Shown in pieces: positions 1 to 18,590 of a stretch of 64,000 nt of DNA. The translations under genes were made by a program, and so were the position numbers. Source of the DNA: Bryobacterales bacterium (GTDB lineage Bacteria > Acidobacteriota > Terriglobia > Bryobacterales > Bryobacteraceae); the NCBI GenBank assembly GCA_963848735.1, contig CAWKEP010000010.1, forward strand, positions 305,083 through 369,082, written 5' to 3'. The stretch's first letter is position 1; the number at the start of each line of letters is the position of its first letter. Under the pieces are notes generated by a model. It did no database searches and was not told the origin of the DNA. It saw nothing but the letters and a program-made list of their open reading frames with translations.

Positions 1-1475
1 TGGATACGGGTGAAGTGGAACTGGTCGCTACCAAGCTTTGGATTTTGAACGAATCGCGCACGCCGCCGTTTCCCATGGAAGAAACGGTGGACGTGAAGGA
101 AGACGCGCGGCTGAAATACCGCTATGTCGATTTGCGCAGGCCGCACATGCAGCGCAATATCATGCTGCGATCGAAGATCAGCTTCGCGGTGCGCGAGTTT
201 TTGTACAGCCAGGGGTTTCTGGAGATCGAAACGCCGTTCATGGGGCGATCGACGCCGGAGGGCGCGCGCGATTATCTGGTCCCCAGCCGCGTGCAACCGG
301 GATCGTTCTATGCGCTGCCGCAATCGCCGCAGATTTATAAGCAGCTTCTGATGATCAGCGGTTACGAGAAATATTTCCAGATCGTGCGCTGTTTCCGCGA
401 TGAGGATTTGCGGGCGGACCGGCAGCCCGAGTTCACGCAAATCGATCTGGAGATGTCGTTTCCGCAGCAGGAGCGCGTCTACGAAGTGATCGAGCCGATG
501 CTCCAGCGCGTGTTTGAGGCAGCGGGCTTCGAAGTTCCGAAACAGTTCCCGAGGCTCACGTATGCGCAAGCCATGCGGTCCTACGGCATCGACAAACCGG
601 ATCTTCGGATGCCGCCATTCTATGTTTTGGACGGAGAATCGTGGCAACTCGGCTTAACATTTCCGCCGATTGCGATCCATATTCCGAAGACCGGCGCACT
701 GAGCCGCAAAGAACGGGACGAATTGAAGGAGTATGGAACTCAGCGCGGATTGCGGGTCTATGACGATCTGAAGAAGTTGGATCCCAAGCTGGTGGAACAG
801 GCGCGAGCGGCGTCGGGCGCGGCCGAGGACGATCTGCTGTTGATCGCCGGATGGCCTGGGCCTCCGCAAGGGCAGCGTCCCGAAGAAACGTTCTACCTGG
901 CTTGCGGGCAGCTTCGCCTGTTTGCCGGCCAGAAATACAACGACCGGCACAAGCTGCTGGATCCGATGAATTTCAAGCCGCTTTGGGTAGTGGATTTTCC
1001 GATGTTCGAATGGGACGCGGAAGAAAATCGTTGGTTCGCGGCGCACCATCCGTTCACTTCGGTGCATGACGAGGACATCGATAAGTTGACCAGCGATCCG
1101 GCGCGCTGCCGCGCTAAATCGTATGACGTAGTGTTGAATGGCACGGAACTGGGGTCCGGGTCCATCCGTATTCATCGCCGCGACGTGCAGGCCAAGGTTT
1201 TCAGCGCGCTTGGATTCTCGGACGAAGAGGCCAAGAAGCGGTTCGGATTTCTCCTGGAAGCGCTGGAGTATGGCGCGCCGCCGCATGGCGGAATCGCGCT
1301 GGGGCTGGACCGTCTGGTGATGATCCTGGCGGGCGAGACTTCGATTCGCGAGGTGATTCCATTCCCGAAAACGGCACGCGCCACGGATCTGATGAGCGAA
1401 GCGCCTTCCACTGTTTCCGATCGGGTGCTGCGGGAACTGGGCATTCGGATCGCGGGGCCCCCGGCGAAACAGTAG
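1..1475 (+). CDS. aspS: aspartyl-tRNA synthetase, 5'-truncated by the window edge
   Basis: The frame is open to position 3. Class IIb aaRS motifs are present: [57 protein letters not shown]. Confidence 0.95.
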
Positions 1476-1481
1476 AGTGGA

Positions 1482-2184
1482 ATGATGCCGGCGGTAACGA
1501 TTGAGGGCGTGTGGAAATATTACGGCGACTATCCGGCGCTGCGCGACATTTCCTTCAGCGTGGATGGGGGCGCGTGTCTCGCGCTGATCGGCCGTAACGG
1601 CGCGGGCAAAACAACGCTGCTGCGTATTCTTGGCGGGCTTTCGAAAGCTGCACGCGGCCGTGTTTCGATTCTTGGCAACGACACGCGCTCCGGCGCCACC
1701 CGGCAGCGGATCGGGATTTTGGGGCATGGCATCGGCGTCTACGAAGAGCTGTCGGCGTTCGAGAATTTGAGCCTGTTCGGCCAGCTTTACGGCTTGGACG
1801 ATCCGCGCCGCACCGCGACAGAATGGCTGGAGCGAACTGGTCTGGATCGCGTCCGTGATGGCCTGGTGCGCGAGTTTTCCCGCGGCATGCGGCAGCGTTT
1901 GGCGATCGCACGGTGTTTCCTGCATCGAGCCGTCGCTGCTGTTGCTGGACGAACCGTTTACGGCGCTGGATGACCGCGCGATCCAGGTTCTGCAGGATCT
2001 GCTGAAATCGGCGCTGGCGGCCGGGCGAACCATCATGATGTCGACGCACCAACTGCGGGAAGCGCTGGAGCTGGCCACCGATGTGGCGCTGATCAATCGC
2101 GGCAAACTGGCTTATCGGGGGCCACGCACCTGGGAAATGTTGGAAGATCCCGGCTGGCTGTATCGTCATTACGGAGAGGCATGA
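1482..2184 (+). pseudogene. ccmA: haem-exporter-type ABC ATPase CcmA, frame broken once near 1925
   Basis: Walker A GRNGAGKTT and signature SRGMRQRLAIA lie in ORF 1482..1973. Walker B LLLLDEP and the rest lie in ORF 1855..2184, in a different frame. ATGA start/stop overlap with the next gene (ccmB). Confidence 0.8.
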
Positions 2185-2889
2185 GGTTTCTGCGCCAGAA
2201 GTTTCTGGGGCAAACATTTCTGCGCCAGACATTGGCGATTGCCGCCAAGGATCTGCGCTCGGAAATTCGCGGCAAGGAGGCCGTGAACGCTTCGGTTTCC
2301 TTCGCGCTGGTGATCCTGCTGCTTTTCAGCTTCGCTTTCGATCTGGAACCGGAGCAGGTTCGAGACATCTCGGGCGGGCTGCTATGGCTGATTTTCGCCT
2401 TCGCCGGCACTCTGATTCTGAATCGCAGTTTTGCGCGTGAATTGGTGAACGATTGCCTGGACGCGCTGCTGGCCTCCCCCGTGGGCGGGGCGCAGTTGTT
2501 CCTGGGAAAATGCATCGCCAACTATGTGTTGATCATGGTGGTGGAATGCATCAGCCTTCCGGTGTTCGCCATTTTCTATAATGTTCGCTTGCCGCAACGC
2601 CTGGCGCTGCTGTTCGTCGTGATGCTTTTGGGCACCTGGGGGATTACCGTGATCGGAACGATGTTCAGCGCCATGACCGTGAATCTGCGGTTGCGCGAGC
2701 TGATGCTGCCGACGCTGATTTATCCGATGTTGATTCCGGCTTTGATCGGCGCCATTGAACTCAGCCGGGTGCTTGATCACGGGCGGGCCGCTGGCCGAGA
2801 ACCTGTTTTGGTTTCGCGTTTTGGCGGCGTTCAACGTCATCTTCACCATTTTGGCTTTAGCTTTGGTAGAAATTGTTCTCGTGGGGTAA
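2181..2889 (+). pseudogene. ccmB: haem exporter membrane protein CcmB, frame broken near 2785
   Basis: Polytopic CcmB-like sequence. After ...IELSRVL the expected C-terminus ITGGPLAENLFWFRVLAAFNVIFTILALALVEIVLVG* reads in the +1 frame and stops at TAA 2887-2889. The track ORF 2181..3575 is an artefactual CcmB-CcmC fusion. Confidence 0.8.
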
Positions 2890-2891
2890 TT

Positions 2892-3575
2892 ATGCGTTTG
2901 AAAATCATCCTGACTCTATCCGTGCTGGCCGGTGCGATTCTGGCTTGGAACCTACATCGCATTTTTCTGCAGGTTCCGGATGAAGCCAACCAGGGCGCCA
3001 TCTTCCGCATCATCTATTTCCACGTGCCGGCCGCGATCACGTCGTTCACGGGATTTTACCTGGCGATGTTTGCGGGCGTCGGCTATCTGATTACCAGAAA
3101 CTTACGCCTGGATTCCATCGCCGCATCCATCAACGAAGTATCGCTGGCCTTCGCCACCATCACGATCTGTACCGGAAGCATTTGGGGCCGGATCATCTGG
3201 GGCATCTGGTGGACCTGGGACGCTCGGCTGACATCGTACTTCGTGTGCCTGCTGATCTACTTCGGTTATTTCATGCTGCGCCGCGCGATTGACGATCCCA
3301 CTGCGCGCGCGCGGCTGTCGGCGGTGTTGTCGATATTCGCGTGCGTGGATATCGTGCTGGTCTGGAAGTCGATTGAGTGGTTCCGGACCCAACATCCTGG
3401 GCCGGTTCTAGAAATCCGCGGTGGCGGCGGCATGGCGCCGGGGATGGAAGCGCCGTTGTGGTGGAATTTTCTGGCGATGCTGATGCTGTCGACGGCTTTG
3501 ATACTGATCCGTACGCGGCAGGAAGCCATGAAACTCGAGATCGATGCGCTGCGGCGTCACGCACACGCTTTCTAA
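2892..3575 (+). CDS. ccmC: haem exporter / haem lyase subunit CcmC
   Basis: Internal ATG at 2892 directly after the ccmB stop. Trp-rich haem-handling motif WGIWWTWDARLTS. Multiple TM helices. Confidence 0.9.
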   Translation: MRLKIILTLSVLAGAILAWNLHRIFLQVPDEANQGAIFRIIYFHVPAAITSFTGFYLAMFAGVGYLITRNLRLDSIAASINEVSLAFATITICTGSIWGRIIWGIWWTWDARLTSYFVCLLIYFGYFMLRRAIDDPTARARLSAVLSIFACVDIVLVWKSIEWFRTQHPGPVLEIRGGGGMAPGMEAPLWWNFLAMLMLSTALILIRTRQEAMKLEIDALRRHAHAF

Positions 3576-3584
3576 GGAACCATC

Positions 3585-3746
3585 ATGAGTTCAGACAACA
3601 ACACGTTCATGTTTCTTGGCTTCACGGTCGCCTGGTTGATCGTGATCATTTACGTGATCTCGATCGCGCTGCGCGAGAAAAAGCTGCGCCAGGAGCTCGA
3701 TCGCGTGAAACGCATGGTGGAGGAAGGCGAAAGTACCCGGCGCTAG
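3585..3746 (+). CDS. ccmD: CcmD-like small membrane protein (53 aa), below the ORF-track length cutoff
   Basis: My translation is MSSDNNTFMFLGFTVAWLIVIIYVISIALREKKLRQELDRVKRMVEEGESTRR*. It has one TM helix and a charged tail. AAGGAA lies 6 nt upstream. It sits directly after ccmC. Confidence 0.6.
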   Translation: MSSDNNTFMFLGFTVAWLIVIIYVISIALREKKLRQELDRVKRMVEEGESTRR

Positions 3747-3768
3747 CTGACTATGCTTAGCTAACCAG

Positions 3769-4588
3769 TCAGCAGGTCACTTCCGGACGGCAATTGATGC
3801 GCACGCCGGCAACGTTTCCGACACCGCGCGTCACGTAGACTTGACGCCCATTCCATTCTTTCAAGCCGGCGATGAAGCGCTTGTCGCGAACCGGCACGAA
3901 GCGCTCACCGACGAATGGCAGCACCACTTGGCCGCCGTGCGTATGGCCGCTCAACATCAGATCCCAAGGGCGATCGGCCAGCACATCTTTGGTATCGGGA
4001 TTGTGCGCCAGAAGGATGGCGGGGGCGTCGGCCGCGACGTCGGTAAACGCGAGATCACCGTCCACGCCTTGGCTCCAAAGATCGCCTACGCCGGCAAATC
4101 GAACGGATTGATCGCGAACTCGAACGAGCTTCCGAGCGATTGTGCAGGAGTGAAACATTGCTGTCGCGCAACAAGTCGCGAATCACCGAACTGTCCGAGA
4201 AGCCGCCGATCTGCTCGGCCCAAGTGCCTCCGTCGTGATTGCCCAGGCTGCCGAATACTGGCGCGGCGCTGGATAGCCGGCGAAGAATACGCGCGTATTC
4301 CGCGTCGTCAAAGGGAGCCGCGTTGGTAACGAAATCGCCAGTCAGGCAAATCACGTCAGGCTTGGCTTCCAGGCCCATCTGGACCGAATTTTCGATCAGC
4401 GAGAACGGGACGGATGACGAAGCGTGAAAGTCGGACAAATGCAGAATCCGAACGCCGGTGGTGAGACGCTGGCGCGGCAATTTTACTCGATGGATGGTGC
4501 GTTCCAGCCAATTGGGCTCAACGCCAAAGGCATACACCGGCGCCGAACCAACCACCGGGAGTAAAGAAAGGAGTTTCCTGCGGGTCAA
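3769..4588 (-). pseudogene. calcineurin-like metallophosphoesterase (YaeI-like) with signal peptide, frame broken near 4145
   Basis: Motifs ILHLSDFH, GDFV and GNHD are in ORF 4055..4588. GHTHGGQV is in ORF 3769..4158. The two halves join at ...DSNVSLLHNRS / ARKLVRV.... Confidence 0.8.
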
Positions 4589-4638
4589 ACTATTCTATTT
4601 TCGCACGCGGAACGTGCTGGCGCATAGTTACTGACGTT

Positions 4639-5572
4639 CTAGTACGCGTTCCCCGCAATTGCGTCGACGAAGGCCCGCGGGATGGGCCATGCCCCATAGA
4701 CCTGGCGATCGTCGCGGCGGAATGTTCCCGCCACCAGAACCCCGCTCAAATCGGCTGGATCGGGCTTGCGATGATCCTTGGAAGATATCTCGCGCAGGGC
4801 GGTGGTAACGCCTTCAAACTGGGTTAACAGTGCGGAGGCCGCCGGCGTGTCTTTGCAAGTCACGTGAACCCCGAGTTGCAGTTGTTGTTTGGCGTCCGCG
4901 CCGATGCTGAACACGATCTGGTCGGCCCCTTGTAGTGCCGGCACGAAAGCCTTGGCGGCCGCGGGCAGGGAATCCATGCGCTGTAGCGCGATGGAGGGAA
5001 TCAGAGCCCATACCGGTTCTTGCGGTGGCGCGAGCGTCAGTTTTACCGACTGACTGCGTCACTTGATACGCCGCGAAATCGTCCGGACTGATGGCCATCG
5101 CGAGCACGTCGTGCTTCAAGGGATAAAACGAAATCCGGCGATTGGGTTGGCTGCCGGCGACCACGCAAAATTCACCGTGACACGATCCGCCTTGCCGCGC
5201 GGCATAGTCCCTCAGATTGTTCCAATGAAAGCGCCCGCGCAGAGCGAAGAAAATCTTGCCGTCCTTGAAGGCAGCGGCGATCGCGTCTAAATCCTGGCGA
5301 TAGTCGAACTTCGTTTCCTTGACGAACTGCAGATAATCGCCGTCTTCCGCGGCCTTGGAACCCGCCACCAGGTTGAGAATGCCGGAGCGCCGCATGGAGT
5401 CCACGTCGATGTACAGCAGTGTTGCGTTCGCGGCGGGCAGCAGGGCCAGCAGATCGCCCGGCTGCGCGGGGCCATGCGTTCGATGAAACCAATACGCGCC
5501 CGCGCTGGCCCCGAGAGCGCCGATGGCCACTATGAGCGCGATAATCTGCCGGGGATGAAGGCGGACGCGCAC
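4639..5572 (-). pseudogene. hypothetical N-terminally anchored protein, frame broken near 5040
   Basis: ORFs 4814..5572 and 4639..4977 join as ...QSVGK / LTLAPPQEPVWALIPSIALQRMDSLP.... The break sits at an A4 run (ggtaaaactgacg). No recognisable domain. Confidence 0.5.
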
Positions 5573-5582
5573 TACGGGCAGG

Positions 5583-6624
5583 TTACACCGCCGCGGCAGT
5601 CTCTGTCACGCGCGATTCTTTCCACAGATCGATGTAGGGGCGAAGCGATCGCATCAGGGCCTGGAATTGCGGCATGTCCAACGATTGCGCGCCATCGCTC
5701 ATGGCTTTTTCGGGCGCCGGATGCACTTCGATAATCAGCCCGTCGGCGCCGATGGCGACGCCAGCGCGTGCCAGCGCAGGAACCAGGCTGCGCTTGCCGG
5801 TGGCATGACTCGGGTCAAGAATCACGGGCAAATGGGTGAGTTCGTTCAGCACAGCCACGGCCACGATGTCGCAGGTGTTGCGCGTCACGGTTTCGAAGGT
5901 CCGGATTCCGCGCTCGCACAGGATCACGTTGGGGTTGCCGTGCGCCACCACGTATTCGGCCGACATCAAGCAGTTCCTTGATGGTGGAGCTCATGCCGCG
6001 CTTCAGCAATACCGGCCGGTTGCACTTGCCGAGCGTTTTGAGCAGCGCGAAATTCTGCATGTTGCGCGCGCCGATCTGCAGCACGTCGGCGTAATCGGCG
6101 ACCAGGTCCACATCGCGATCGCTCATCACTTCGGTGATGATGCTCAAACCGGTGGCGCGCTTGGCTTTGGCCAAAAGCTTCAGCCCTTCCTCTTCCATGC
6201 CCTGGAAATCATAGGGCGAGGTCCGCGGCTTGAAGGCTCCACCGCGCAGCAATTTCGCGCCGGCTCGCGCTACGCCTTCGGCAGCCTGCATGATCTGCTT
6301 TTCGGATTCCACCGAGCAGGGCCCGGCCATGACGATGAACTCGTCGCCGCCGATCTCGCAACCGTCCACGCGGATTCGCGTGCGTTCGGTACGGTACTCC
6401 TTGCTCACGAATTTGTAAGGGGCAGAGATGCGCACCGCCTTCTCTACCTGTGGCATGGCCTCCACGGATTCCAGGCAGGCGGTGGTGTCGCCGGTGCCGA
6501 CCGCGCCGATCACGACGCGCTCTTCGCCCTCGATGGCGTGGATCTTGTAGCCGAAGTCCCGAATCCGTTCACACACTTGCTCGATCTCCTCTTTGCTCGA
6601 GTGGAGTTTCATCGAGATGATCAT
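5583..6624 (-). pseudogene. aroF: 3-deoxy-7-phosphoheptulonate (DAHP) synthase, type I-beta with an N-terminal regulatory domain, frame broken near 5975
   Basis: [29 protein letters not shown] and [11 protein letters not shown] are in ORF 5815..6624. [19 protein letters not shown] and GLIIEVHP are in ORF 5583..5969. An ACT/ferredoxin-like ~70-aa N-terminal extension is present. AGGAGA RBS before ATG 6624. Confidence 0.85.
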
Positions 6625-6639
6625 GGTTCTATCTCCTCT

Positions 6640-6670
6640 AAAAATGAAAAACCCACTCTTTCGAGTGGGT
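6640..6670 (-). terminator. intrinsic terminator hairpin immediately upstream of the aroF RBS (attenuator terminator)
   Basis: Minus strand reads ACCCACUC-GAAA-GAGUGGGU (8-bp stem, GNRA-type loop) followed by UUUUCAUUUUU. Then come AGAGGAGAU (RBS) and ATG 6624. Confidence 0.75.
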
Positions 6671-6717
6671 TGCTTTTTCTAATCAGTATTGCTTAAGCCA
6701 ACGCCACTCGCCCCGAT

Positions 6718-6771
6718 TCAGGCGCTAAACCAGTACCAAAATCGAAACGAGTTGTGGGCGCTACGACGCAT
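6718..6771 (-). CDS. 17-codon aromatic-rich leader peptide MRRSAHNSFRFWYWFSA*
   Basis: atg cgt cgt agc gcc cac aac tcg ttt cga ttt tgg tac tgg ttt agc gcc tga. Six of seven consecutive codons are Phe, Trp or Tyr. It lies 47 nt upstream of the terminator stem and upstream of DAHP synthase. Confidence 0.6.
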   Translation of the reverse strand: MRRSAHNSFRFWYWFSA

Positions 6772-6779
6772 GAAGCCTT

Positions 6780-6809
6780 AGTATATGCAGAAGTCCGGGT
6801 CGGGCGCAA
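6780..6809 (-). promoter_or_regulatory. candidate sigma70-type promoter for the leader/aroF transcript
   Basis: Minus strand TTGCGC (6809-6804), 18-nt spacer, TATACT (6785-6780). Only 8 nt separate the -10 from the leader ATG, so the transcript may be leaderless. Motif match only. Confidence 0.3.
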
Positions 6810-6826
6810 GGGCGGGCGTTCTGGGG

Positions 6827-7108
6827 CTACTTCGAGGCTCTAACCACCTCTACTATCACTGCGGTTGCAAAAAAAGCTCCGCCGAGCACCATCAGCAAGA
6901 ACCAAACGGATGACAGCGCACTATCCGGAAACAGGTCCTCGTAAAGACGCCGAATTTCGGAGAGGTGCATGCGACACTCGATAAGGGGAATCCTCTTGTT
7001 CGCCGGCAGAACTTTATTGAGTTCGATCGCCATGCGAAAGAATAGCCCCCAGCCTGTCAGGGAGACGGCCACGCCAACCAGAAACAGACCGAGCGATATC
7101 TTATTCAT
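6827..7108 (-). CDS. hypothetical small membrane protein (2 TM helices)
   Basis: 93-aa ORF with hydrophobic N- and C-terminal helices. The local region is visibly more AT-rich than its surroundings. Confidence 0.5.
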   Translation of the reverse strand: MNKISLGLFLVGVAVSLTGWGLFFRMAIELNKVLPANKRIPLIECRMHLSEIRRLYEDLFPDSALSSVWFLLMVLGGAFFATAVIVEVVRASK

Positions 7109-7126
7109 GCCCGGACCTCATCGGAA

Positions 7127-7297
7127 CTAACTCTCTTGTTCGAAGATGATGCCGTCCAGAATTGCCATTTCTTCGTCCGTGAAATCCGCGAAGGCCGCCC
7201 TATATGAAGCGAGTTTACTTTCACCGCGGACGGCATCCGCGCTCGGGAAGGCCTTGCCAGAGGTCGCCGCGAGTTCATCTGTCGCCATAGATATCAT
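7127..7297 (-). CDS. hypothetical small acidic protein (56 aa)
   Basis: GGAGG lies 4 nt upstream of ATG 7297 (MISMATDELAAT...FTDEEMAILDGIIFEQES). The longer track ORF start at 7390 has no RBS. No recognised domain. Confidence 0.4.
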   Translation of the reverse strand: MISMATDELAATSGKAFPSADAVRGESKLASYRAAFADFTDEEMAILDGIIFEQES

Positions 7298-7401
7298 CTT
7301 ACCTCCACGATCCAAAATCGCTCCGAGCTTGGTCAACCGTGGACGGCGGCCCTCCAAAGGTGAAAGAATATGCGGTGGCCTAGCTGCCAAAAAGAATCGT
7401 C

Positions 7402-8201
7402 ATGAAAACACTCGTGGCATTGACTATTTTGACGACGGCGTTACTTGCCGGGCAGGCCCCCGTCCAGCCGCCCGCGCCGGCACGGCCTGTTAACAAATTC
7501 CTGATTAGCCGTTCCGTTCCGGATCCCGCGGCGGTGGAGCGCGGACAAAAGATTTTCTCCGCCAACTGCGGCTTTTGCCATGGCGCCAACGCGCAAGGGG
7601 GCGACACTGGGCCGGATCTGGTGCGTTCCCCGCTGGCACTTGACGACGAACGCGGCGATAAGATCGGGCCCGTGATCCTGCAGGGGCGGGCCAGCAAAGG
7701 CATGCCGGCTTTTCATTTGCCTGCTGAACAAATTCAAGATATCGCCGCATTCCTGCGCTCGCGCCAGCAGGCCGCCATCGATCGCAGCGCGTACACGATT
7801 CTCAACGTCGTCACCGGGGATGCTCAAAAGGGCCGGCAATACTTTAACGGTGAAGGGCGCTGCAACACTTGCCATTCGCCCAGCGGAGACCTGGCCGGCG
7901 TTGCCAAGAAATACGATGCCGTTACGTTGCAATCGGTTTTCTTATACCCGCGCTCCGCTCCGGTTCACCCTCAGGTCACCGTCATGCTCGCCCCGGCCAG
8001 ACTTTCTCCGGCACGCTCGATTACTTGGATGATTTCAACGTCTCGCTCCGCGATGGCGCCGGCGAATATCATTCGTTCGCCCGTGATGCGCAGGTCAAGG
8101 TGGAAATCCACGATCCACTGTCCGCTCATGCCGATTTACTCAAGAAGTACACCGATGCCGATATGCACAATTTGCTCGCTTACCTGGTGACGTTGAAATG
8201 A
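7402..8201 (+). pseudogene. dihaem c-type cytochrome with signal peptide, frame broken near 7990
   Basis: Two CxxCH motifs (CGFCH, CNTCH). The C-terminal part (...GQTFSGTLDYLDDFNVSLRDGAGEYH...LLAYLVTLK*) is in ORF 7869..8201. ATGA overlap with the downstream PQQ dehydrogenase. Confidence 0.8.
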
Positions 8202-9769
8202 AGTTCACGCTGACCGCGTTCTCGCTCATCGGACTCTCGCTTTCGGCGCAAGGGCTGGATCCCGGGCTGTTACTGAAACCGCCAACCGACGCTTGGCCCA
8301 CTTACAATGGGGATTACTCGGGACGGCGCTTCAGCCCGCTTGCGCGCATTAATTCATCGAACGTTACTTCGATGACTTTGGCCTGGGAATATCGTCTGGA
8401 TCCTGGCACCGGAACGCTGACCTCGCCGATCAAAGCCACGCCGCTGGAAGTCAACGGCGTCCTTTATTTCACGCTTCCCGATCATGCCTGGGCCGTGGAC
8501 GCGCGCACCGGCCGCCAGCTTTGGCATTACCAATGGACTTCGCATGGCGGCATTCACATCGGCAGCCGCGGTTTCGGAATGTATGGGGACTGGCTCTATT
8601 TCGAAACGCCCGATAACTATCTGGTATCGCTGAATGCCAAGGATGGCTCCGAGCGCTGGCATGTTCAGATCGCCGACGTGAATCAGGAATACTTTTCCAC
8701 GCCAGCGCCCATCGTCATCCGCAATCACATCCTGGTCGGCGTGGGTGGCGATTCGCTGGACGTTCCCGGCTATCTGGAATCGCGCGATCCGGAAACCGGC
8801 CAGGTGCAATGGCGCTGGAACACCACGCCGCGCAAAGGCGAGCCGGGCGCTGAAACATGGCCGAATCCGGAAGCGATGGAACACGGCGGCGGCATGACCT
8901 GGGTGCCCGGCACTTACGATCCGGTTCTTAATCTGTACTATCTCGGCACCGGGAATCCGAATCCGGTGATGGCGGGCCAAGGCCGCAAGGGGATAATTTG
9001 TGGACCTGCTCCATCGTCGCTTTGAATCCGGATACGGGCAAACTGGCCTGGTATTTTCAGGCTTCGCCGCACGATACGCACGATTGGGACGACGCCGAAA
9101 CGCCCATTCTTATTGACGGCCAGATCGATGGACGGCCGCGGAAGCTGCTGGCGCAAGCCAGCCGCAACGGCTACTTTTTCGTGCTGGATCGCACCAACGG
9201 CAAGAACATCCTGTCGAAGCCGTTTATCGATATCAATTGGTCCAAGGGCCTGGACGCGCAAAGGGCAGCCCATCGGCAATCCGGACAAGGAGCCCAAGAC
9301 GGACGGCACGCTGGTGATCCCGGCACAGAACGGCGCCGCGAATTGGCCTTCGCCCAGCTTCGATCCGGAAACCGGCCTGTTCTATGTGAATGCGTCATCG
9401 TCCTATAGCCTGTTCTATCTCACTGACACCGACGATAAGCCGGAAGGCTACGGCGGGCGTGACACGGGTGTTTACGCCACGGTAGCGCTGAAGGCTATCG
9501 ACTACCGCACCGGCCAAATTCGGTGGACGCACGACTATAATCGGGGCGGACCCATTATCGGCATCTTGACTACCGCGGGAAAGCTGCTATTTACCGGCGA
9601 TCCTTCGGGCAATTTCATCGCTTTCGATCCGGCCAACGGAAAAATTTTGTGGCACGCGCATCTCATCAGTACGGTGAGCAACGGCCCGATGACTTACGAG
9701 CTGGATGGCCGCCAGTACGTCGTGGTTGGCGCCGGAGACAGCTTATACGCTTTCACGCTACTGCAGTAG
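8198..9769 (+). pseudogene. PQQ-dependent beta-propeller dehydrogenase (quinoprotein alcohol/sugar dehydrogenase-like), two frame breaks (~8995, ~9262)
   Basis: Three ORFs (8198..9025, 8998..9408, 9113..9769) join into one propeller protein: ...GTGNPNPV..., NLWTCSIVALNPDTGKLAWYFQASPHDTHDWD, SRNGYFFVLDRTNGK, AIDYRTGQIRW. Confidence 0.8.
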
Positions 9770-9966
9770 GAGTAGTAGAGCCAGAACCTTAGTCTTCGTG
9801 TTCATACGACCACACTTCCGTAAAAGTTACACGTATTTTCTACGCAGAAAACAAATCGTTATCACGTAAGTCCCTGTTTCGCATTGCTAATTCATTTGGA
9901 ATCTGTTTTGCTTCTCTAAGATCGTGACCGGATGAGTTTCTCCGGCATGGCTCAAGGAGGATGTTC

Positions 9967-10845
9967 ATGTCCACAAATGATTCTGGCGGTTCGCCGCGCT
10001 CGCACACCGCTGCACTCTGGGTTTTAGGCGCTGGGATGGCTCTTGCGTTGGCGGGAAACGCTTATCAGTTCTCAAAGAGCGCGCACCTGTCGAGCGATAT
10101 GGCAGCGAATGAGCGCAGCACTCAACTCGAAATTCGCAAGCTGGCCGATACCGCCGGCGCGGCGCTGCAACTGGATCAAGAGCGCTTCGATCAGTTGAAA
10201 GATCAACTCAACACGACTGCGGCCGCCACTCTGCGCCAAGCCCGGTCGGAAGTTAAGCGCAGCAATTCGCAACTGACGGAAAGTCTGTCGCAAGCTCATC
10301 AGGACGTGGTCAGCCAACTGTCCGAATTGAAGCAGGAGACCAGCAGCAAGATCAACGACACCAGCGAAAAGCTAAACGATACCAGCGCGAAGCTGAACGA
10401 CACCAGCGCCAAGCTGAATCGAGTGTCGGGCGATCTCGATCAGACCGGTTCCGATGTGCGGCGCGTGGTGGGAGATCTGGGCGTGGTGAGCGGTCAAGTG
10501 GCCACCAACGCCAAAGAGCTTGCGGCTCTGCGGGAACTTGGTGAGCGCAACTATTTCGAATTCAATCTCAGCAAGGCGAATGAGCCCCAAAAGGTGGGCG
10601 ATATTCGGTTGGTGCTGCGAAAATCGGATCCGAAGCACAATCGCTACACGCTGGAAGTGATGGCCGACGATAAGATTGTGGAGAAGCGGGACAAGACCAT
10701 CAACGAGCCGGTGCAGCTCTATGTGTCAGGCAACCGCCAGCCTTATGAAATCGTGGTGAACCAGGTGAAGAAGAACGAAGTGGTGGGTTATCTGTCCACT
10801 CCCAAGGTCAGGATGCAGCTGTCGAGCGCGCATTTGACGCATTAA
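9967..10845 (+). CDS. hypothetical membrane-anchored coiled-coil protein with a C-terminal beta-rich domain
   Basis: AAGGAGG ends at 9960. ATG 9967 has better spacing than ATG 9961. One TM helix, a long heptad region including KxNDTSx repeats, and a C-terminal domain YFEFNLSK...YEIVVNQVKKNEVVGYL. Confidence 0.7.
   Translation: MSTNDSGGSPRSHTAALWVLGAGMALALAGNAYQFSKSAHLSSDMAANERSTQLEIRKLADTAGAALQLDQERFDQLKDQLNTTAAATLRQARSEVKRSNSQLTESLSQAHQDVVSQLSELKQETSSKINDTSEKLNDTSAKLNDTSAKLNRVSGDLDQTGSDVRRVVGDLGVVSGQVATNAKELAALRELGERNYFEFNLSKANEPQKVGDIRLVLRKSDPKHNRYTLEVMADDKIVEKRDKTINEPVQLYVSGNRQPYEIVVNQVKKNEVVGYLSTPKVRMQLSSAHLTH
10348..10431 (+). repeat. 3.5 tandem copies of a 21-nt (7-codon) unit inside the coiled-coil gene
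   Basis: aagatcaacgacaccagcgaa / aagctaaacgataccagcgcg / aagctgaacgacaccagcgcc / aagctgaatcgagtgtcgggc, encoding K(I/L)NDTS(E/A) x3 then KLNRVSG. Confidence 0.85.
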
Positions 10846-11891
10846 CGGCGCGATTGCAGGTCGCTATAGCTGGGTAATCCCGCGATTCCCTGCGCGTTCA
10901 TCACCGCCCGCAACACCGCCCGGGCCATCACATCCGCAGCCAATGCTCCAATGGCGCCGTGATTGGCCCGCGCGGCAATGGAACCTGTAGCGACGGCAAA
11001 AATGGTATCGCCATCGCTCGGCGTGTGGACCGGATAGATGGTCCGCGCCAAACCGTCGTGAGCCATCTGCGCGACTTTGGCGGCCTGCACCTTATCGAGC
11101 GCGACGTTGGTGGCCACCACTCCGATGGTGGTGTTCGCGCTACTGGCAGCCACGCTGTAGCCTTCCCGCATGCGCGCCATCGAATCCATGAACCCGCTGC
11201 CATCCGGCTTGCGGGCGCCCGCGATAATCTTGCCCGTCTTCGGATCCACGACGTCGCCCACGGCGTTCACCGCAACAATCGCCCCGACCACAATCCCTGT
11301 GTTGCCGACGCGAACGCTGGCGCTTCCCAGGCCAGACTTCATGGCCTGCTTCATGCCAAACATTTTTCCGATTACGGCACCTGCGCCCGCGCCAACATTA
11401 CCCTCCGCCACGGGCTGCGTGGTGGCCGCCTGACTGGCCTTGTATCCCGATTCGGCCGTGGGACGGATCTTCGCGTCACCGATCTCCAAGTCATAAAGAA
11501 TCGCCGCCGGGACGATCGGCACCACGACATCTCCGACGGCATAGCCCAATCGATGTTCTTCCAAATACCGGACTACGCCTGACGCGGCGTCTAATCCAAA
11601 CGCGCTTCCGCCCGCGAGCAGAATCGCTTGCACCTGCTGCACGGTGTTGATGGGATTCAAGAGGTCGGTCTCACGCGTACCCGGCGCCGACCCGCGGACA
11701 TCCACGCCAGCGGTCGCGCCCTTTTCGAACAGCAGCACGCTGCAACCAGTGGGCCGGCGCGAATCGGTAAAGTGCCCAACCTTCACGCCCTGCACGTCCG
11801 TGATGCTTCCGGCCGTCTCCGTTTCCGCCGCTTGAATCGCAGGCAAAGCGACCCCCGCGGTTATGGCGGCAAGGAACTCGCGACGTTTCAT
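10842..11891 (-). CDS. P1/S58 family peptidase (DmpA-like aminopeptidase) with TAT-like signal
   Basis: Start trimmed to MKRREFLAAITAG (ATG 11891). GVKVGHFTD, GCSVLL, GSAPGTRETDLL, LLAGGSAFGLDAA and NTTIGVVATN are typical of the DmpA/S58 family. Confidence 0.85.
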   Translation of the reverse strand: MKRREFLAAITAGVALPAIQAAETETAGSITDVQGVKVGHFTDSRRPTGCSVLLFEKGATAGVDVRGSAPGTRETDLLNPINTVQQVQAILLAGGSAFGLDAASGVVRYLEEHRLGYAVGDVVVPIVPAAILYDLEIGDAKIRPTAESGYKASQAATTQPVAEGNVGAGAGAVIGKMFGMKQAMKSGLGSASVRVGNTGIVVGAIVAVNAVGDVVDPKTGKIIAGARKPDGSGFMDSMARMREGYSVAASSANTTIGVVATNVALDKVQAAKVAQMAHDGLARTIYPVHTPSDGDTIFAVATGSIAARANHGAIGALAADVMARAVLRAVMNAQGIAGLPSYSDLQSRR

Positions 11892-11954
11892 CTTTATCCA
11901 GGTTACTCCCGGACCGGTTGCCTCGCTTACGAGACACGCGCTAGAGTCAGCATT

Positions 11955-13010
11955 GTGAGACGCTTTTGCGGGATCCTGTTCGCGACCTTTACGCTGTTGG
12001 CGCAAAATCAACCCGGGCAGACCTGGACGTTCGCCGTGTCGGGCGATTCGCGCAACTGCGGCGACATTGTAATGCCGGCCATTGCCGCGGGCGTACACAA
12101 AAGGAATGCCGTTTTTTACTGGCACTTGGGCGATTTCCGCGCCATTTACAATATCGACGAGGATATGTCGCCACCCGCCCATCTCGGCTTGCACAACGAG
12201 CCTCTCGAAAGGGCCGCCTACCACAAGCTAGCCTGGCCCGATTTCATCGCCCACGAGCTAGAGCCCTTCGGTCCGTTGCCAATTTATTTGCTGATGGGCA
12301 ACCATGAAGTGGCACCGCCCATGACGCGGGAAGCTTGGCTGGTGCAGTTTGCCGATTGGCTGGAAACGCCTGTTCTGCGAACTCAGCGCCTGAAAGACGA
12401 TCCCACCGATCACAAATTGCACGCTTACTACCACTGGATTGTGCAAAATGTCGACTTCATCTCGCTCGACAACTCCGGCATCGATCAGTTCGAACCCGAG
12501 CAAATGAATTGGCTACGCGGAGTGCTGGCACGCGATGAAGCGTCGCCGGAAATCCGGACTATCGTGGCCGGAATGCACGAAGCGCTACCTGGCAGTCTGG
12601 CCAGCCAGCACAGCATGAGCTCAACGCCGATCGGCGACAAGACCGGGCGCGAAACCTATGAAGCACTGTGGCACGCGCACGAAACCGCCGGCAAGCATGT
12701 GTACGTTGTCGCCAGCCACTCGCACTTCTATATGGACAACGTTTTCGACACGGCCGAGTGGAAGGACAAGGTTCTACCTGGCTGGATCATCGGCACGGCC
12801 GGAGCCCAGCGCTACAAGCTGCCGTCCAAAATCACTCCCGCGCAGCATGCGCAGACGAATGTCTACGGCTATATGATCGCCACTGTCACCCCAGACGGCA
12901 CGGTGTCGTTCGTCTTCGACCGTTTGAGCCTGGACGATATCCGCGCGGTTACGGGCGCCAGCTATCCGGAGCAGCTTTTGCGCTGGTGTTACGAAAACAA
13001 TCACCAATAA
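11955..13010 (+). CDS. metallophosphoesterase family protein with signal peptide
   Basis: Start trimmed to GTG 11955 (VRRFCGILFATFTLLAQ). FAVSGDSRNCGD, HLGDF, GNHE, SHSH. The upstream part of track ORF 11628..13010 overlaps the divergent peptidase gene. Confidence 0.75.
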   Translation: MRRFCGILFATFTLLAQNQPGQTWTFAVSGDSRNCGDIVMPAIAAGVHKRNAVFYWHLGDFRAIYNIDEDMSPPAHLGLHNEPLERAAYHKLAWPDFIAHELEPFGPLPIYLLMGNHEVAPPMTREAWLVQFADWLETPVLRTQRLKDDPTDHKLHAYYHWIVQNVDFISLDNSGIDQFEPEQMNWLRGVLARDEASPEIRTIVAGMHEALPGSLASQHSMSSTPIGDKTGRETYEALWHAHETAGKHVYVVASHSHFYMDNVFDTAEWKDKVLPGWIIGTAGAQRYKLPSKITPAQHAQTNVYGYMIATVTPDGTVSFVFDRLSLDDIRAVTGASYPEQLLRWCYENNHQ

Positions 13011-13021
13011 AGAACCCCACG

Positions 13022-13984
13022 CTACTTGCCCGCGCTCTCCCAGCCCGTCTTTGAGTTGTACGGCATCAAGAAGCCCATGGCTTCGATCTCGTGAAACTTG
13101 CCGCCTTGGATTTTGAAGATGTGCGCGGCCGGAAGGTCGAAGGCTTTGAAAGGCATGTCGATTTTGTCCAATCCGGGAACGCCCACGATTTTGACGTAAT
13201 TCTTTTCCATCGGCTGGCGGAACTGCGACAGCCCGAAAACCAAGCCGGTCTCCGGGTCGGCAATCCATACGCGGCGGGGCTCGATTCTGGTGATGTAGTC
13301 GAAGGTATGGGTCTTGATTTGCGCTTCGCAGCCCATGGCGCCCGTGATTCCCATCCCAGGCGTCTTGGAAGGCGGATTGCCGGTGGTCTGCATTCCGTTT
13401 TCGCGGCGCAGGCAATCGTCGGCGAACGGCGCATTGTTGCTGTCGGCGGTAACCAGCGCCGTGTAATAGGATTCGCCGATCTTGAGCATCTTTTCGCGGG
13501 GCATTCTTTCGGAGGGCGGCACGGTGGCAAGCAGCCCCGGCCGGGGCGTCTGCAAATTCTTGAGACTGTTCTCGCTTAGGCCGCGCGCGATTAAATGCTC
13601 GGCTTCGATAATCTTGCCGTCTTTCAGCTTCAGGCGCAGGCCAAACTGGATGGGCTTTTCGCCATCCTTATCATGCTCCTTCATCACGCACAGAAAGCCC
13701 ACCTGCTGGGCCACGGGATCGGGGACATAAATCTTGAATGTTGTTGGACCCTCCGATGCCGTCTTCCACAACCCTTCGCCGGGCTTCAGCTGGTTTGTAT
13801 TTTCGACGAACACAACGCCGGCTGCCAGCGGGGCTTGCGACGGATCGTGGGACACCAGGGCAGCGATGTAGGTGTCCACGGTTTTTTCCAAACATGCTCG
13901 ATCGCACTTGGCTGCGATCGCGTTAACGCTTGTCCCCGCCAAGGCCAAGCCGAAAATCAAACCAGCATTTAAGATTTTGGTCAT
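13022..13984 (-). CDS. hypothetical secreted protein
   Basis: Intact 320-aa ORF with a signal peptide (MTKILNAGLIFGLALAGTSVNAIA). No domain I can name with confidence. Confidence 0.6.
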   Translation of the reverse strand: MTKILNAGLIFGLALAGTSVNAIAAKCDRACLEKTVDTYIAALVSHDPSQAPLAAGVVFVENTNQLKPGEGLWKTASEGPTTFKIYVPDPVAQQVGFLCVMKEHDKDGEKPIQFGLRLKLKDGKIIEAEHLIARGLSENSLKNLQTPRPGLLATVPPSERMPREKMLKIGESYYTALVTADSNNAPFADDCLRRENGMQTTGNPPSKTPGMGITGAMGCEAQIKTHTFDYITRIEPRRVWIADPETGLVFGLSQFRQPMEKNYVKIVGVPGLDKIDMPFKAFDLPAAHIFKIQGGKFHEIEAMGFLMPYNSKTGWESAGK

Positions 13985-14049
13985 CGACCTAAGATCCTAT
14001 CAATTGACACCGTCTCCCGCTCAGGCGTCACAATGGAGAAGGGGGCCAC

Positions 14050-14481
14050 ATGGCATTCGAGCACGACCATCTCGATATTCATCAAAGGGAGCAGGAGGGT
14101 GTTGTCATCCTGGATCTCCATGGACATGTTGTGCTCGGCCGCGGCGACTGCGCGCTGCGGGACGCCGTAGAATCTCTCTTCGATCAGGGGAATCGGCAAC
14201 TGATCCTCAACTTCGCCCAGGTTGCCAACATCGACGTGTCAGGCGCTGGAACCATCCTGGCCTTGGCTGAACAATATCAAGCAGCAGGAGGCAAGCTAGT
14301 GATGCTTCAACTGGCGCATCCACACGAAGAACTGTATGAAAAGGCGCGGCTGGAAGCAATCCTCGAGATGTACGCACTGGAACTGGACGCGGTGAACAGC
14401 TTCTTCCCGGATCGCGCCGTCGCGCACTACGACATTCTGGACTATATCGACCACCGCGATCATCCGGAAAAGAAGATCTGA
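14050..14481 (+). CDS. STAS-domain protein (anti-sigma-factor antagonist-like)
   Basis: VVILDLHGHVVLG..., LILNFAQVANIDVSGAGTILAL and GGKLVMLQL match the SpoIIAA/STAS pattern. Confidence 0.75.
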   Translation: MAFEHDHLDIHQREQEGVVILDLHGHVVLGRGDCALRDAVESLFDQGNRQLILNFAQVANIDVSGAGTILALAEQYQAAGGKLVMLQLAHPHEELYEKARLEAILEMYALELDAVNSFFPDRAVAHYDILDYIDHRDHPEKKI

Positions 14482-14493
14482 TCCGTTACGCTC

Positions 14494-15469
14494 TCAAGTG
14501 GTAAAGAACATCCGCCAGGTGGTGACCACCAGGGCGTGCGTCACCATGCTGGCCTTTACGCTACGCGCCTTGATCAAGGCCAGGCCGCAGAACAGGCCGA
14601 GTACGCCGGCGATGGTCGCGATCCGCCAGTTCGGAAATTTGCGGAACGGAAGGTGCGCCAGGCCGAAAAGCACCGATGCGGCCAGCAATCCCGCCGTTTC
14701 GCTATGCAGACGGCGTATCAGCACTTGTTGCAGGAAGGCTCGAAAGAAGAACTCCTCGGCCAGGGCAACCACCCACAAGATGCCTGCAAATGTCGCAACC
14801 AGCACCAAGAGAAACTTCCACCACTCGAGCTGCTGGGGATGAAATCGCGCGAACCGCTCCCAGTAGCCCAGGGCGGCGCCTACCGGCAGGAAGTAGAAGT
14901 AATGCTGTATTCCGACGCGCCAGTCCTGGGGCGACGGCAGAAATCCGAGGCGGGCGTCATCGAGCGGCCGCAGCGAAAGCACCGCCATCAATCCCACGCG
15001 GATCCACATCAGCTGTCCCAAGATGGCGAGCGGGACGTGAGGCGCCGGATTTCCGTAGATCTGATCGAACGGCTTGCTCAGGTAGACGCCTGCCATGAAT
15101 CCGAGAAAGAGAAGATCGGCAAGAAGGCACCCGGAACCCAGGCGTACCAGAACGCGGCTACCAAAACGATCCCCAGCAACTCGATGAAATGGATCCATTG
15201 GAATGATCCTAGCCGCGAGGTCTCGATTAGATAAGGAAGCATCGCGCTCGCGCTCAACATTGCCGCCCGCAGAGGTTTGGAGCCCAACGAATCGAATTTC
15301 CTGCGTGCCGCCGGGAATCCCGGAGCCAGGTAAAACAAAATCTCGAGCAGAAAGCCGGCACCACCGCTATCGCGATGCTTGACGGGATATGCTGTTGTTG
15401 GGAGTAAACGTAGGCTGCGATGGAAGCTGCTATACAAACCAGGGGCAGCGTCGTCACGAACTGGCGCAT
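14494..15469 (-). pseudogene. CPBP family intramembrane glutamic endopeptidase (CAAX protease-like), two frame breaks (~15355, ~15115)
   Basis: EEFFFRAFL, FGLAHL and a distal H are in ORF 14494..15198. The N-terminal TM helices continue in ORFs 15078..15437 and 15254..15469. Confidence 0.75.
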
Positions 15470-16193
15470 CTGCTACATCCTAGCATCGGCTCTTTCGATC
15501 TCCTGCCTGGCCGCGGCCGCTGACGAACCACCGCCGAATCTAGTTCGTCTGATAGCAGCGCGGGAAACGGAGACCGCCCAAGCGCAAAGCAACTACACGT
15601 ACCGCCAGACGGTGACGCTGGACGAACTCGATCCCAAGGGCTTGGCCGAGGGCACTTATCGCGAAGTTCGCGACATCATCTTTTCACCAGCGCAGGAGCG
15701 CAGCGAGCAGATGGTGGGCAAACCGTATCGCACCTTGACCCATCTCCAAATGACCGACGAAGATTTTCGCGATCTGCGCGACGTGCAGCCTTTTCTGCTC
15801 ACCAAAGATCAGGCTTTTCTTTATCAAACGCAATTTCGCGGCGAGGAGAATATGGACGGCGTGGATTGCTTCGTCGTTCAAATTCGCCCGCGCCAGATCC
15901 TGGATGGCCAGCGCCTGTTCGACGGCATGCTATGGGTCTCGAAGAAGGATTATTCGGTGATCCGCAGTGAAGGCCAGGCGGTTCCCGAGATCCGCACGCT
16001 CAAAACCGAAAACTTGTTTCCGCACTTCACCACCCTCCGTCAAAAGGTGGCAGGTGATTTCTGGTTCCCCATCACGACGTATGGCGACGACACATTGTAT
16101 TTCCGGGGCGGCGCGCAGCGTATCCGGCTGACCATCCGCTGTACCGATTACCGCCGCTTCGGCGCCGACTCTAAGATTACGTTCGACAAATAG
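15420..16193 (+). CDS. secreted protein, LolA-like / outer-membrane lipoprotein-sorting-like fold (tentative)
   Basis: Signal-peptide-like N-terminus. The pattern MDGVDCFVVQIRP...LWVSKKDYSVIRSEG...DFWFPITT resembles LolA-like family proteins. Start codon uncertain. Confidence 0.5.
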   Translation: MEAAIQTRGSVVTNWRICYILASALSISCLAAAADEPPPNLVRLIAARETETAQAQSNYTYRQTVTLDELDPKGLAEGTYREVRDIIFSPAQERSEQMVGKPYRTLTHLQMTDEDFRDLRDVQPFLLTKDQAFLYQTQFRGEENMDGVDCFVVQIRPRQILDGQRLFDGMLWVSKKDYSVIRSEGQAVPEIRTLKTENLFPHFTTLRQKVAGDFWFPITTYGDDTLYFRGGAQRIRLTIRCTDYRRFGADSKITFDK

Positions 16194-16270
16194 AGCCGAA
16201 CCTTCGTGTTAAGCGCTTCGTATAGAGTGTAGAATCTAGATATTCCGATCTGAGACCAACGGGAGGGTGC

Positions 16271-16654
16271 ATGGCGCAACACGTGAAGATCTTGGGGATT
16301 TTGCATATCATTTTCGGAGCCTTGGGCGTACTGGCCGCTATTATAGTGCTCATGATCTTTGGCGGCATCTCAGCCATCGTGGGCTTGTCCGACCATTCTC
16401 CCGACAACGCGGCGGCCGCGCCGATTCTAGGCGTGATTGGCGGCTTCGTGTTCTTCCTTGTTCTGGTGCTTTCGCTGCCCGGCCTGGTGGCGGGCATCGG
16501 GCTAATTCAATACCGGTCGTTGGGCGCGCCTGACGACCATCATCCTTTCCGCGTTCGACCTGCTGAGTATTCCGTTTGGCACTGCGTTGGGTGTGTATGG
16601 CCTGTGGGTGATGCTCAACCCGGAAACCGAACGGTTGTTTGCCGCTCCGCCTGA
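16271..16654 (+). pseudogene. small polytopic membrane protein, frame broken near 16520; 3' end uncertain
   Basis: The TM-rich N-terminal 85 aa are in-frame. The expected continuation WARLTTIILSAFDLLSIPFGTALGVYGLWVMLNPETERLF reads in another frame (ORF 16587..16805). Confidence 0.5.
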
Positions 16655-17671: not shown

Positions 17672-17809
17672 GCTTGCTTCCCTTGGCAAGACACCTTAGT
17701 AACACACTAACGAGCGCCCCCGTATCGGCCGATAGCTGATTGGATCCTCCGGCGTTTCTGGTCAATCCGGGCGTCGATTTGGAAATGCCGGCTTGACGGT
17801 AGCTTAACT

Positions 17810-18480: not shown

Positions 18481-18554
18481 CGGAAAAACCTCCGGCGGTT
18501 CAAAAAATCGGGTTTCGCCATTTGTCCAACAGATTGAGGCAAATGCCCGCCGGA

Positions 18555-18583
18555 GTCAATCCCGTTTTTCACTCTTGTATAAT
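18555..18583 (+). promoter_or_regulatory. candidate promoter with TG-TATAAT 7 nt upstream of the M28 peptidase ATG
   Basis: tTGTATAAT at 18576-18583, weak -35 GTCAAT at 18555-18560 (17-nt spacer), then ccgagct and ATG 18591. No Shine-Dalgarno in between. Motif match only. Confidence 0.3.
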
Positions 18584-18590
18584 CCGAGCT

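Follow-up and report, generated by a model that had tools for sequence, protein, structure and literature searches.

Among leader-peptide attenuators, the ilv and thr leaders are cases in which one leader senses several amino acids. In Escherichia coli, the reference systems are pheL-pheA (PMC3082878) and trpL-trpEDCBA (Yanofsky model, cited in PMC11802643). A leader-peptide attenuator acting on a 3-deoxy-D-arabino-heptulosonate 7-phosphate (DAHP) synthase gene has been described in Corynebacterium glutamicum, the aroR-aroF pair (Mentz et al. 2013, PMC4046766; Neshat et al. 2014, as cited in PMC11802643 and PMC7356990). The aroR peptide carries only Phe-Tyr-Phe, and the reported response is to Phe, not to Tyr. 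Mycobacteria possess leaderless attenuators made of polycysteine short open reading frames (ORFs) (bioRxiv 10.1101/834739). The locus described here belongs to a Bryobacterales bacterium of the phylum Acidobacteriota and lies in a stretch of 64,000 nucleotides (nt) (GCA_963848735.1, contig CAWKEP010000010.1, positions 305,083 to 369,082), the whole of which is called the window. In it, the DAHP synthase gene aroF is preceded by a short ORF rich in aromatic codons and by a terminator hairpin. A sequence-only reading had proposed that these elements form a ribosome-mediated attenuator. Energetics, folding with the ribosome at defined positions, conservation of the ORF, the stems and their geometry, and the exclusion of two sequence-based objections support this proposal: very probably, a leader-peptide transcription attenuator controls DAHP synthase according to how much tRNA-Phe, tRNA-Tyr and tRNA-Trp is available in charged form.

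The leader ORF and its promoter

The leader ORF occupies 6718..6771 of the minus strand, with its ATG at 6771, 17 codons and a TGA stop codon at 6720-6718, and its product would be the peptide MRRSAHNSFRFWYWFSA. Codons 9-15 (6727..6747, minus strand) form the putative regulatory run F-R-F-W-Y-W-F (TTT CGA TTT TGG TAC TGG TTT), in which six of seven consecutive codons specify phenylalanine (F), tryptophan (W) or tyrosine (Y). The coordinates, the peptide, the aromatic run and the 47 nt that separate the leader stop from the terminator hairpin had all been given by the sequence-only reading, and all were recovered from the sequence. A density of at least six F, W or Y per seven residues occurs a single time among the 127,960 seven-residue windows obtained from all six frames of the whole stretch, and this occurrence is the leader run. 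A chance origin of the aromatic leader and hairpin is excluded. The 166-nt leader RNA folds more stably than shuffled sequences do (z = -3.16).

Upstream of the ATG, a -10 box TATACT (6780..6785, minus strand) lies 18 nt after a -35-like box TTGCGC (6804..6809, minus strand) and ends 8 nt before the leader start. A strict consensus promoter scan made no call at the leader, because TTGCGC matches TTGACA at only three of six positions. The candidate promoter, already pointed out by the sequence-only reading, is supported by its conservation in related loci rather than by its match to the consensus. In 84 of 89 loci, the distance from the end of a TAnnnT box to the leader start codon is 5-12 nt (mode 8-9), as compared to 5-8 of 89 in control windows; for 76 of these 84 loci it is 7-10 nt, and the exact hexamer TATACT is found in 45 loci. 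Of the 84, 70 also have a TTGnnn box, mostly TTGC, which precedes the -10 box by 16-18 nt. A Shine-Dalgarno-like motif precedes the leader in one of 89 loci, and the leader ATG of the window has none. At promoters of the sigma-70 type, transcription usually starts about 7 nt after the -10 box. The spacing of the -10 box and the missing Shine-Dalgarno motif together suggest that the leader mRNA is probably leaderless or nearly so, with a 5' untranslated region of 0-3 nt.

Terminator, antiterminator and protector

The RNA between the leader start and aroF contains segments with alternative partners. Segment 1 (CUCGUUUCGAUUUU, 6738..6751, minus strand) is the 5' strand of a protector hairpin, termed 1:2, that appears in both the minimum free energy and the centroid folds. 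Segment 2 (6696..6719, minus strand) pairs with segment 1 through 6719-6707 and with segment 3 through 6710-6696 (CGAGUGGCGUUGGCU). Segment 3 (AGCAACCCACUCG, 6662..6674, minus strand) is common to the antiterminator and to the 5' arm of the terminator. The latter is an intrinsic terminator of nine pairs, AACCCACUC-GAAA-GAGUGGGUU at 6671-6650, followed by the T-run UUUCAUUUUU at 6649-6640 (minus strand). The GC-rich hairpin, its loop and its tail agree with the sequence-only reading, which had counted 8 bp where the sequence gives 9.

The competing antiterminator had been proposed from the complementarity of CGAGUGG (6710-6704), starting 7 nt past the leader stop, with CCACUCG (6668-6662). This pairing was confirmed, and it extends to about 14 bp (6710-6696 with 6674-6662; CGAGUGG-C-GUUG-G-CU with segment 3). 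Taken in isolation, the antiterminator (2:3) has an energy of -16.4 kcal/mol, as compared to -15.3 kcal/mol for the terminator (3:4). The 1:2 protector, absent from the sequence-only reading, is a 13-bp hairpin of -21.2 kcal/mol that joins the F-R-F codons (6751-6739) to 6719-6707, the stretch carrying CGAGUGG. The three helices are mutually exclusive, and the order of their energies is that of the trp attenuator. When the nascent RNA is folded up to a point before segment 4, 1:2 forms without a ribosome and 2:3 forms once segment 1 is masked.

The terminator hairpin sequence exists as a single copy in the whole window and is the top-ranked terminator-like site of its first 20 kb. A dispersed repeat was considered and rejected: besides being single in the window, the hairpin has no position other than upstream of aroF in the loci retrieved. 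The scan of positions 1-20000 returned 32 terminator-like sites as compared to 22 +/- 5 in shuffled sequences, most of them weak and the attenuator hairpin being the strongest; this genome seems poor in canonical intrinsic terminators. An A-rich tract ahead of the hairpin on the aroF strand makes it terminator-like on the plus strand as well (6650-6679, AACCCACTCTTTCGAGTGGGTT then GCTTTTTCTA). This tract (AAAACC/AAAGC) is common to many family members.

Conservation of the element

A protein-seeded scan with one genome per species, unbiased regarding the RNA, provided 80 DAHP synthase loci, comprising 22 close orthologues (72-96% identity) and 58 distant loci. All 22 close orthologues come from Terriglobia metagenome-assembled genomes (MAGs) labelled Bryobacterales, Acidoferrum/Acidoferrales, Solibacteraceae or Sulfopaludibacter. 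A small upstream ORF with at least four F/W/Y in seven residues is present in 19 of the 22, to which L014 adds a degenerate version. The terminator core, CCC[A/G]CUC...GAG[U/C]GGG followed by a U-run, is found in 23 of the 80 loci, namely all 22 close orthologues and the divergent L042. It is located 24-175 nt upstream of aroF in these 23 loci and nowhere else within them, and was not found in the remaining 57 distant loci. The conservation of ORF and stems in orthologous loci, on which the sequence-only reading had staked its case, is therefore observed, for the leader in 20 and for the terminator in 22 of the 22 close orthologues.

Folding with a ribosome placed on the aromatic codons leads to the same outcome in 20 of 20 leader-bearing loci: 6-7 of the 7 terminator-arm bases pair with the segment at the stop codon, and this pairing is lost or truncated when the ribosome sits at the stop. 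Shuffling the spacers while preserving dinucleotides would yield the stalled-ribosome pairing in 2.2 of 20 loci. The 20 loci share descent, so this score measures conservation and not 20 independent events.

Compensatory changes, another expectation of the sequence-only reading, were found in the terminator and in single loci, and the antiterminator lacks statistical support of this kind. The pair flanking the terminator covaries, being AU in 58 sequences, GC in 9, GU in 9, CG in 1 and broken in 2. In L010, segments 2, 3 and 4 have changed together to GAGCGG, CCGCUC and GAGCGG. Matched changes also distinguish a second subfamily (L028:2800-3000 and L032:2815-3000), from MAGs labelled Terriglobales and 'Aquilonibacter'. 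Its leaders, MTRFTSRTRFSAYCWYPAIAAAPFLGQG and MTRFTSFTVQFRYWFSAVAAAAALAKRSSET, share the homologous core ...FRYWFSA..., and its terminator stem is different (GCCGCGAU...AUCGCGGC with a U-run, 37-44 nt before DAHP synthase). The predicted segment 2 of this subfamily is GCGGC, within the poly-Ala tail of the ORF; as a GC-rich 5-mer, it is weak evidence. The antiterminator of the main family is 89.4% paired in register, as compared to 29-46% when one strand is slid, and is supported by conservation and register rather than by compensatory change. The ORF-internal (1:2) hairpin shows a modest covariation (score of 0.196 vs 0.163 +/- 0.010, reached by 1 of 500 shuffles, with 62% of cells paired). 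This column test is not relied on, because MAFFT sets the subfamily of the window in a register different from that of the majority.

Metagenome contigs were scanned independently of the gene, with the pattern GAGTGG-N20-50-CCCACTC-N3-9-GAGTGGG-NN-TTT. At least 120 stretches match, of which 80 loci were listed and classified. In 68 of these, an aromatic leader precedes the hairpin and the start of a DAHP synthase gene follows it at a distance of 21-155 nt, which argues that the element is specific to aroF. Three further loci have the leader on a contig that ends before the gene, and two have the DAHP synthase, the leader not being found. In one (L144), the DAHP synthase is on the strand opposite to the orientation used. 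Two more lie on contigs that end, without a leader. The last four lack both the DAHP synthase and the leader and appear to be chance matches. The homologous leader ORF is present in 71 of the 80 listed loci.

Family statistics rest on 90 non-redundant leaders, and the position of segment 2 relative to the stop, the promoter spacing, the absence of a Shine-Dalgarno motif and the gap to aroF are not imposed by the scan pattern. Relative to the end of the stop codon, the core of segment 2 starts at -2..0 in 49 leaders, at +4..+8 in 30 and at -17..-23 in 11, which accounts for all 90. The stop codon thus overlaps segment 2 in 49 of 90, and segment 2 lies inside the ORF in 11 of 90; the window, at +8, belongs to the intermediate class. 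A protector of the 1:2 type is predicted in 39 of the 90. The 25-50 nt between segments 2 and 3 are conserved neither in sequence nor in length. The gap from the hairpin to aroF is 25 nt in the window and 28 nt as a family median, and 72 of 91 loci have a gap of 45 nt or less. Of the 71 loci that could be assessed, 40 have a divergent ORF as their nearest upstream neighbour. Together, this short gap and these divergent neighbours rule out a separate aroF promoter and a terminator belonging to an upstream gene.

The leaders are 10-27 residues long and contain F in 90 of 90, Y in 87, W in 85 and all three in 82, with a mean per leader of 3.5 F, 2.0 Y and 1.4 W. Aromatic codons reach 35.4% in frame and 6.9% and 5.5% in the other frames, the ORFs having been picked by aromatic content. 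The rarer Phe codon TTT accounts for 45 of 57 leader Phe codons, as compared to 32% in the long ORFs of the window, and the Arg codon CGA for 22 of 54 leader Arg codons, as compared to 9%. The core motif of the family is F-S-[F/Y]-R-F-W. Its Arg is encoded in the window at 6742-6744, in the middle of the aromatic run; an equivalent Arg stands between two aromatics in 77 of 90 leaders (CGA 55, CGC 20, CGG 15, CGT 2, AGA 2, AGG 1), and W, C, P or G replaces it in the other 13.

An aromatic ORF was also noticed in a Bacteroidota MAG (L079:2640-2770). This 43-residue ORF ends in ...WANWFYSYYYFPLRGK (six of seven aromatic), about 230 nt upstream of DAHP synthase, and the hairpin UUUCCCC-UCC-GGGGAAA lies at its stop codon. 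This ORF may be a separate instance of an aromatic leader, outside the Acidobacteriota.

Proposed mechanism and points that weigh against it

The features of a ribosome-mediated attenuator are found together in the window: a short aromatic ORF, a terminator with no promoter intervening before the gene, an antiterminator, a segment 2 placed at the stop codon, and a 1:2 protector. In the proposed mechanism, the conserved promoter (TTGCnn-17/18-TATACT) would set the start of transcription on the leader AUG or no more than a few bases from it, a position that we infer, and a ribosome would translate the 17-codon leader. If any of the aromatic aminoacyl-tRNAs were scarce, this ribosome would stall in F-R-F-W-Y-W-F and occupy segment 1. 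Segment 2, left free, would pair with segment 3 as soon as the latter is transcribed (-16.4 kcal/mol), the terminator would be blocked, and the antiterminated RNA polymerase would read into aroF, 25 nt downstream. With an ample supply, the ribosome would reach the stop and partly occlude segment 2. After its release, segment 1 would re-pair with segment 2 (-21.2 kcal/mol) and segment 3 with segment 4, and the resulting terminator (-15.3 kcal/mol and U-run) would end transcription. Attenuation would then be a transcriptional layer added to the allosteric feedback exerted through the N-terminal ferredoxin-like domain of the enzyme.

Several observations weigh against this mechanism or reduce what the data can say for it. 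Equilibrium folding of the full leader with a masked ribosome gives the terminator in every ribosome state. Such folding is unable to separate these states, and in its place the nascent RNA was folded as far as a point before segment 4. Since equilibrium always yields the terminator, as it does in classical attenuators, the switch has to depend on co-transcriptional kinetics. A second point concerns the ribosome at the stop codon. The sequence-only reading had it cover segment 2, while a stalled ribosome left that segment free. Folding agrees with the latter part; in the class of the window, segment 2 starts at +8 after the stop and a terminating ribosome masks only part of it. The residual 2:3 pairing amounts to -10.5, -6.1 or -2.2 kcal/mol for a footprint reaching 9, 11 or 13 nt past the stop, and termination probably relies on this weakening plus the re-forming of 1:2. 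To this must be added that 51 of the 90 family members have no predicted 1:2 protector.

The comparative data bring further reservations. Covariation of the antiterminator is not significant, column shuffles being 88.7% paired and 27 of 500 as high as the alignment, with an unremarkable score; the test is null because the 2:3 helix is conserved rather than covarying. RNAalifold, applied to 79 elements, recovered the terminator alone. In the metagenome set, the pattern fixes segment 2 and the hairpin core, so that their conservation there is by construction. In L016 and L018 the hairpin is present and no leader can be recognised, and the target gene itself is frameshifted in the window, where aroF consists of two ORFs (6624..5815 and 5969..5583). 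Lastly, simple codon sensing does not account for an Arg that is conserved while its codon varies; this residue may reflect the ORF-internal hairpin or a role at the peptide level.

The two loci without a leader deserve description. L018:2870-3001 has a good promoter, TTGCCA-18-TATACT, only 12 nt before the hairpin, and in L016:780-914 an ATG-initiated ORF, MPTPGEWVFSFATDERFFFQGNRP, begins directly on the 5' arm of the hairpin; the aromatic leader is absent from both.

Alternative explanations

The family might be a leaderless trivalent sensor characteristic of the phylum, whose peptide core F-S-[F/Y]-R-F-W, with its central Arg, has a function of its own as a nascent-chain arrest or pacing element tuning the stall, or whose terminated leader RNA or peptide acts in trans. 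We regard this as unlikely. It would have the merit that such a role could explain the hairpin without leader in L016 and L018. A case of action in trans is the rhizobial trp attenuator, of which both the RNA rnTrpL and the peptide peTrpL are reported to act in this manner (PMC7968998).

Somewhat more doubtful is the idea that the translated leader does control the terminator, with its core acting as a nascent arrest peptide or otherwise at the peptide level, by sensing, in the manner of TnaC, a free aromatic amino acid within the exit tunnel or by an intrinsically slow translation of Arg plus aromatics. The Arg retained between aromatics despite varied codons looks like an amino-acid-level constraint, and the core motif is conserved beyond what codon content alone needs. 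However, the order and number of aromatics and the length of the leader vary freely, as selection on codon content predicts, and the 13 leaders with a substituted Arg dispense with this residue. The CG of the Arg codon belongs to the ORF-internal hairpin, for which there is some covariation, and an RNA constraint could thus explain the Arg. The architecture, besides, is explicable without the sensing of a free ligand.

A lower probability still is given to a trans-acting factor switching the terminator, be it a TRAP-like protein, an uncharged tRNA as in T-boxes or the small-molecule ligand of a riboswitch, with the ORF being incidental. The terminator stem (CCCACUCG...CGAGUGGG) is indeed unusually conserved between enzymes only 72-83% identical, and the two loci without a leader retain it. 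However, three mutually constrained segments can explain a slow sequence drift, and the start codon, the frame, the stop position and the frame-specific aromatics are conserved, all of which would be needless in an untranslated RNA. With the spacer between segments 2 and 3 unconserved, no conserved structure of aptamer size is left; nor does the element contain a specifier loop, a T-box motif or (G/U)AG repeats, or match any Rfam family at threshold.

Least credible of all is that the hairpin merely ends the transcript of the gene at 6827-7108, with aroF served by read-through or an unrecognised promoter and the aromatic ORF coincidental: that 93-residue ORF does lie on the minus strand too and stops 155 nt short of the hairpin, and the hairpin is terminator-like in both orientations, but hairpin, leader and promoter travel with aroF while the neighbour differs, the gap to aroF leaves no room for a promoter, a conserved promoter immediately precedes the leader ATG, 68 of the 80 listed gene-independent loci precede DAHP synthase, and the aromatic run is unique and frame-specific. 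This alternative, which the sequence-only reading had named as fatal to itself, is excluded by the gap, the divergent neighbours and the conserved leader promoter.

The aroF gene and its surroundings

The gene aroF (5583..6624, minus strand) encodes a type I-beta DAHP synthase. It starts with the ATG at 6624, preceded by the Shine-Dalgarno motif GAGGAG at 6638-6633 (minus strand), and its frame is broken by an extra T at 5968/5969. With this 1-nt frameshift repaired, the product harbors PF00793 and PF18152 and matches the Thermotoga maritima enzyme (1RZM/3PG9) over its full length. The N-terminal allosteric domain announced by the sequence-only reading is a ferredoxin-like regulatory domain (PF18152). 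At the site of the extra T, the window reads CTGCTTGATG and the 96% identical L017 reads CTGCTGATG; the frameshift stems either from a sequencing error in a homopolymer or from a genuine pseudogenising mutation of the attenuator's target gene.

Downstream of aroF, the next gene (4639-5572, minus strand) likewise looks frameshifted. A 252-residue ORF (5572..4814) ends in a low-complexity sequence rich in Arg, Gly and Thr, and the overlapping 112-residue ORF (4977..4639) reads like a genuine C-terminus. Assembly indel errors, rather than biology, would fit this split. Elsewhere, L032 and the stretch homologous to it in L028 have a co-directional upstream ORF ending in a hydrophobic sequence (...AEYAVMLAVILVLVVGTIRLIGSNANNVF...) that by eye resembles a Flp-type pilin.

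Comparison with known systems

Acidobacteriota are among the most abundant soil bacteria, and to our knowledge almost nothing is known of their gene regulation. The element supplies a well-supported cis-regulatory RNA family for this phylum, through which Phe, Tyr and Trp would feed back on shikimate entry, and it is abundant in metagenomes, with the pattern matches counted above. Three by-products accompany it: the conserved layout of the promoter (TTGCnn-17/18-TATACT), a sign that these organisms use leaderless translation, and evidence that canonical intrinsic termination is used there for regulation. The family is a candidate for a new Rfam entry and for annotation pipelines, and a natural switch that would respond to aromatic amino acids. 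The understanding of the attenuation mechanism itself is unchanged.

Across the window, no Rfam family scores at or above its gathering threshold. Membership in Phe_leader (RF01859) was rejected, at 23.4 bits as compared to a gathering score of 55 (E = 0.37); the window aligns with this family over its full length but weakly, and much of the score lies in the terminator hairpin. Other Rfam amino-acid leaders (Trp, His, Leu, Thr and similar) gave nothing over 6000-7400, even at E <=10. A literature search for a leader attenuator of DAHP synthase in Acidobacteriota found none, in agreement with the sequence-only reading, and the literature on a survey of Actinobacteria yielded no DAHP synthase leader; the precedent for the target gene is that of C. 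glutamicum.

The resemblance to E. coli pheL-pheA lies in a run of aromatic (Phe) codons, the 1:2/2:3/3:4 architecture and a terminator just before the biosynthetic gene. In contrast, pheL senses Phe only, precedes the enzyme of a terminal branch, is led by a Shine-Dalgarno motif and belongs to Gammaproteobacteria. With trpL, in the Yanofsky model, the present element shares the choice between antiterminator and terminator by ribosome position and a comparable order of helix stabilities. The amino acids and the target are different, and so is the geometry: the stop codon overlaps segment 2, or segment 2 lies inside the ORF, in the numbers of leaders given above, and over half of the family lacks 1:2.

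The mycobacterial polycysteine ORFs lack a Shine-Dalgarno motif, as the family does. Their mRNA starts at or next to the start codon, as that of the family probably would, and a codon-specific stalling reports amino-acid supply to the downstream genes, as it would here. They differ in the amino acid and the phylum, and the Acidobacteriota family adds a canonical terminator/antiterminator switch, its own probable leaderless status being derived from the -10 spacing.

The closest counterpart is C. glutamicum aroR-aroF. Both systems have an aromatic short ORF directly upstream of a DAHP synthase gene, in both the entry of the shikimate pathway is the regulated step, and in aroR-aroF stalling raises operon expression, as it would here. 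The two differ in phylum, Actinomycetota as opposed to Acidobacteriota, and the Acidobacteriota leaders carry W in 85 of 90 cases. Compared by literature description, the Acidobacteriota family seems likely to have arisen independently of aroR. Seen against these systems, the mechanism follows the textbook, and a precedent for the target gene exists in another phylum; what is new is a family outside Rfam and not a mechanism. This family is widespread in Terriglobia, probably senses all three aromatic amino acids with a leader that is probably leaderless, and places its antiterminator at the stop codon.

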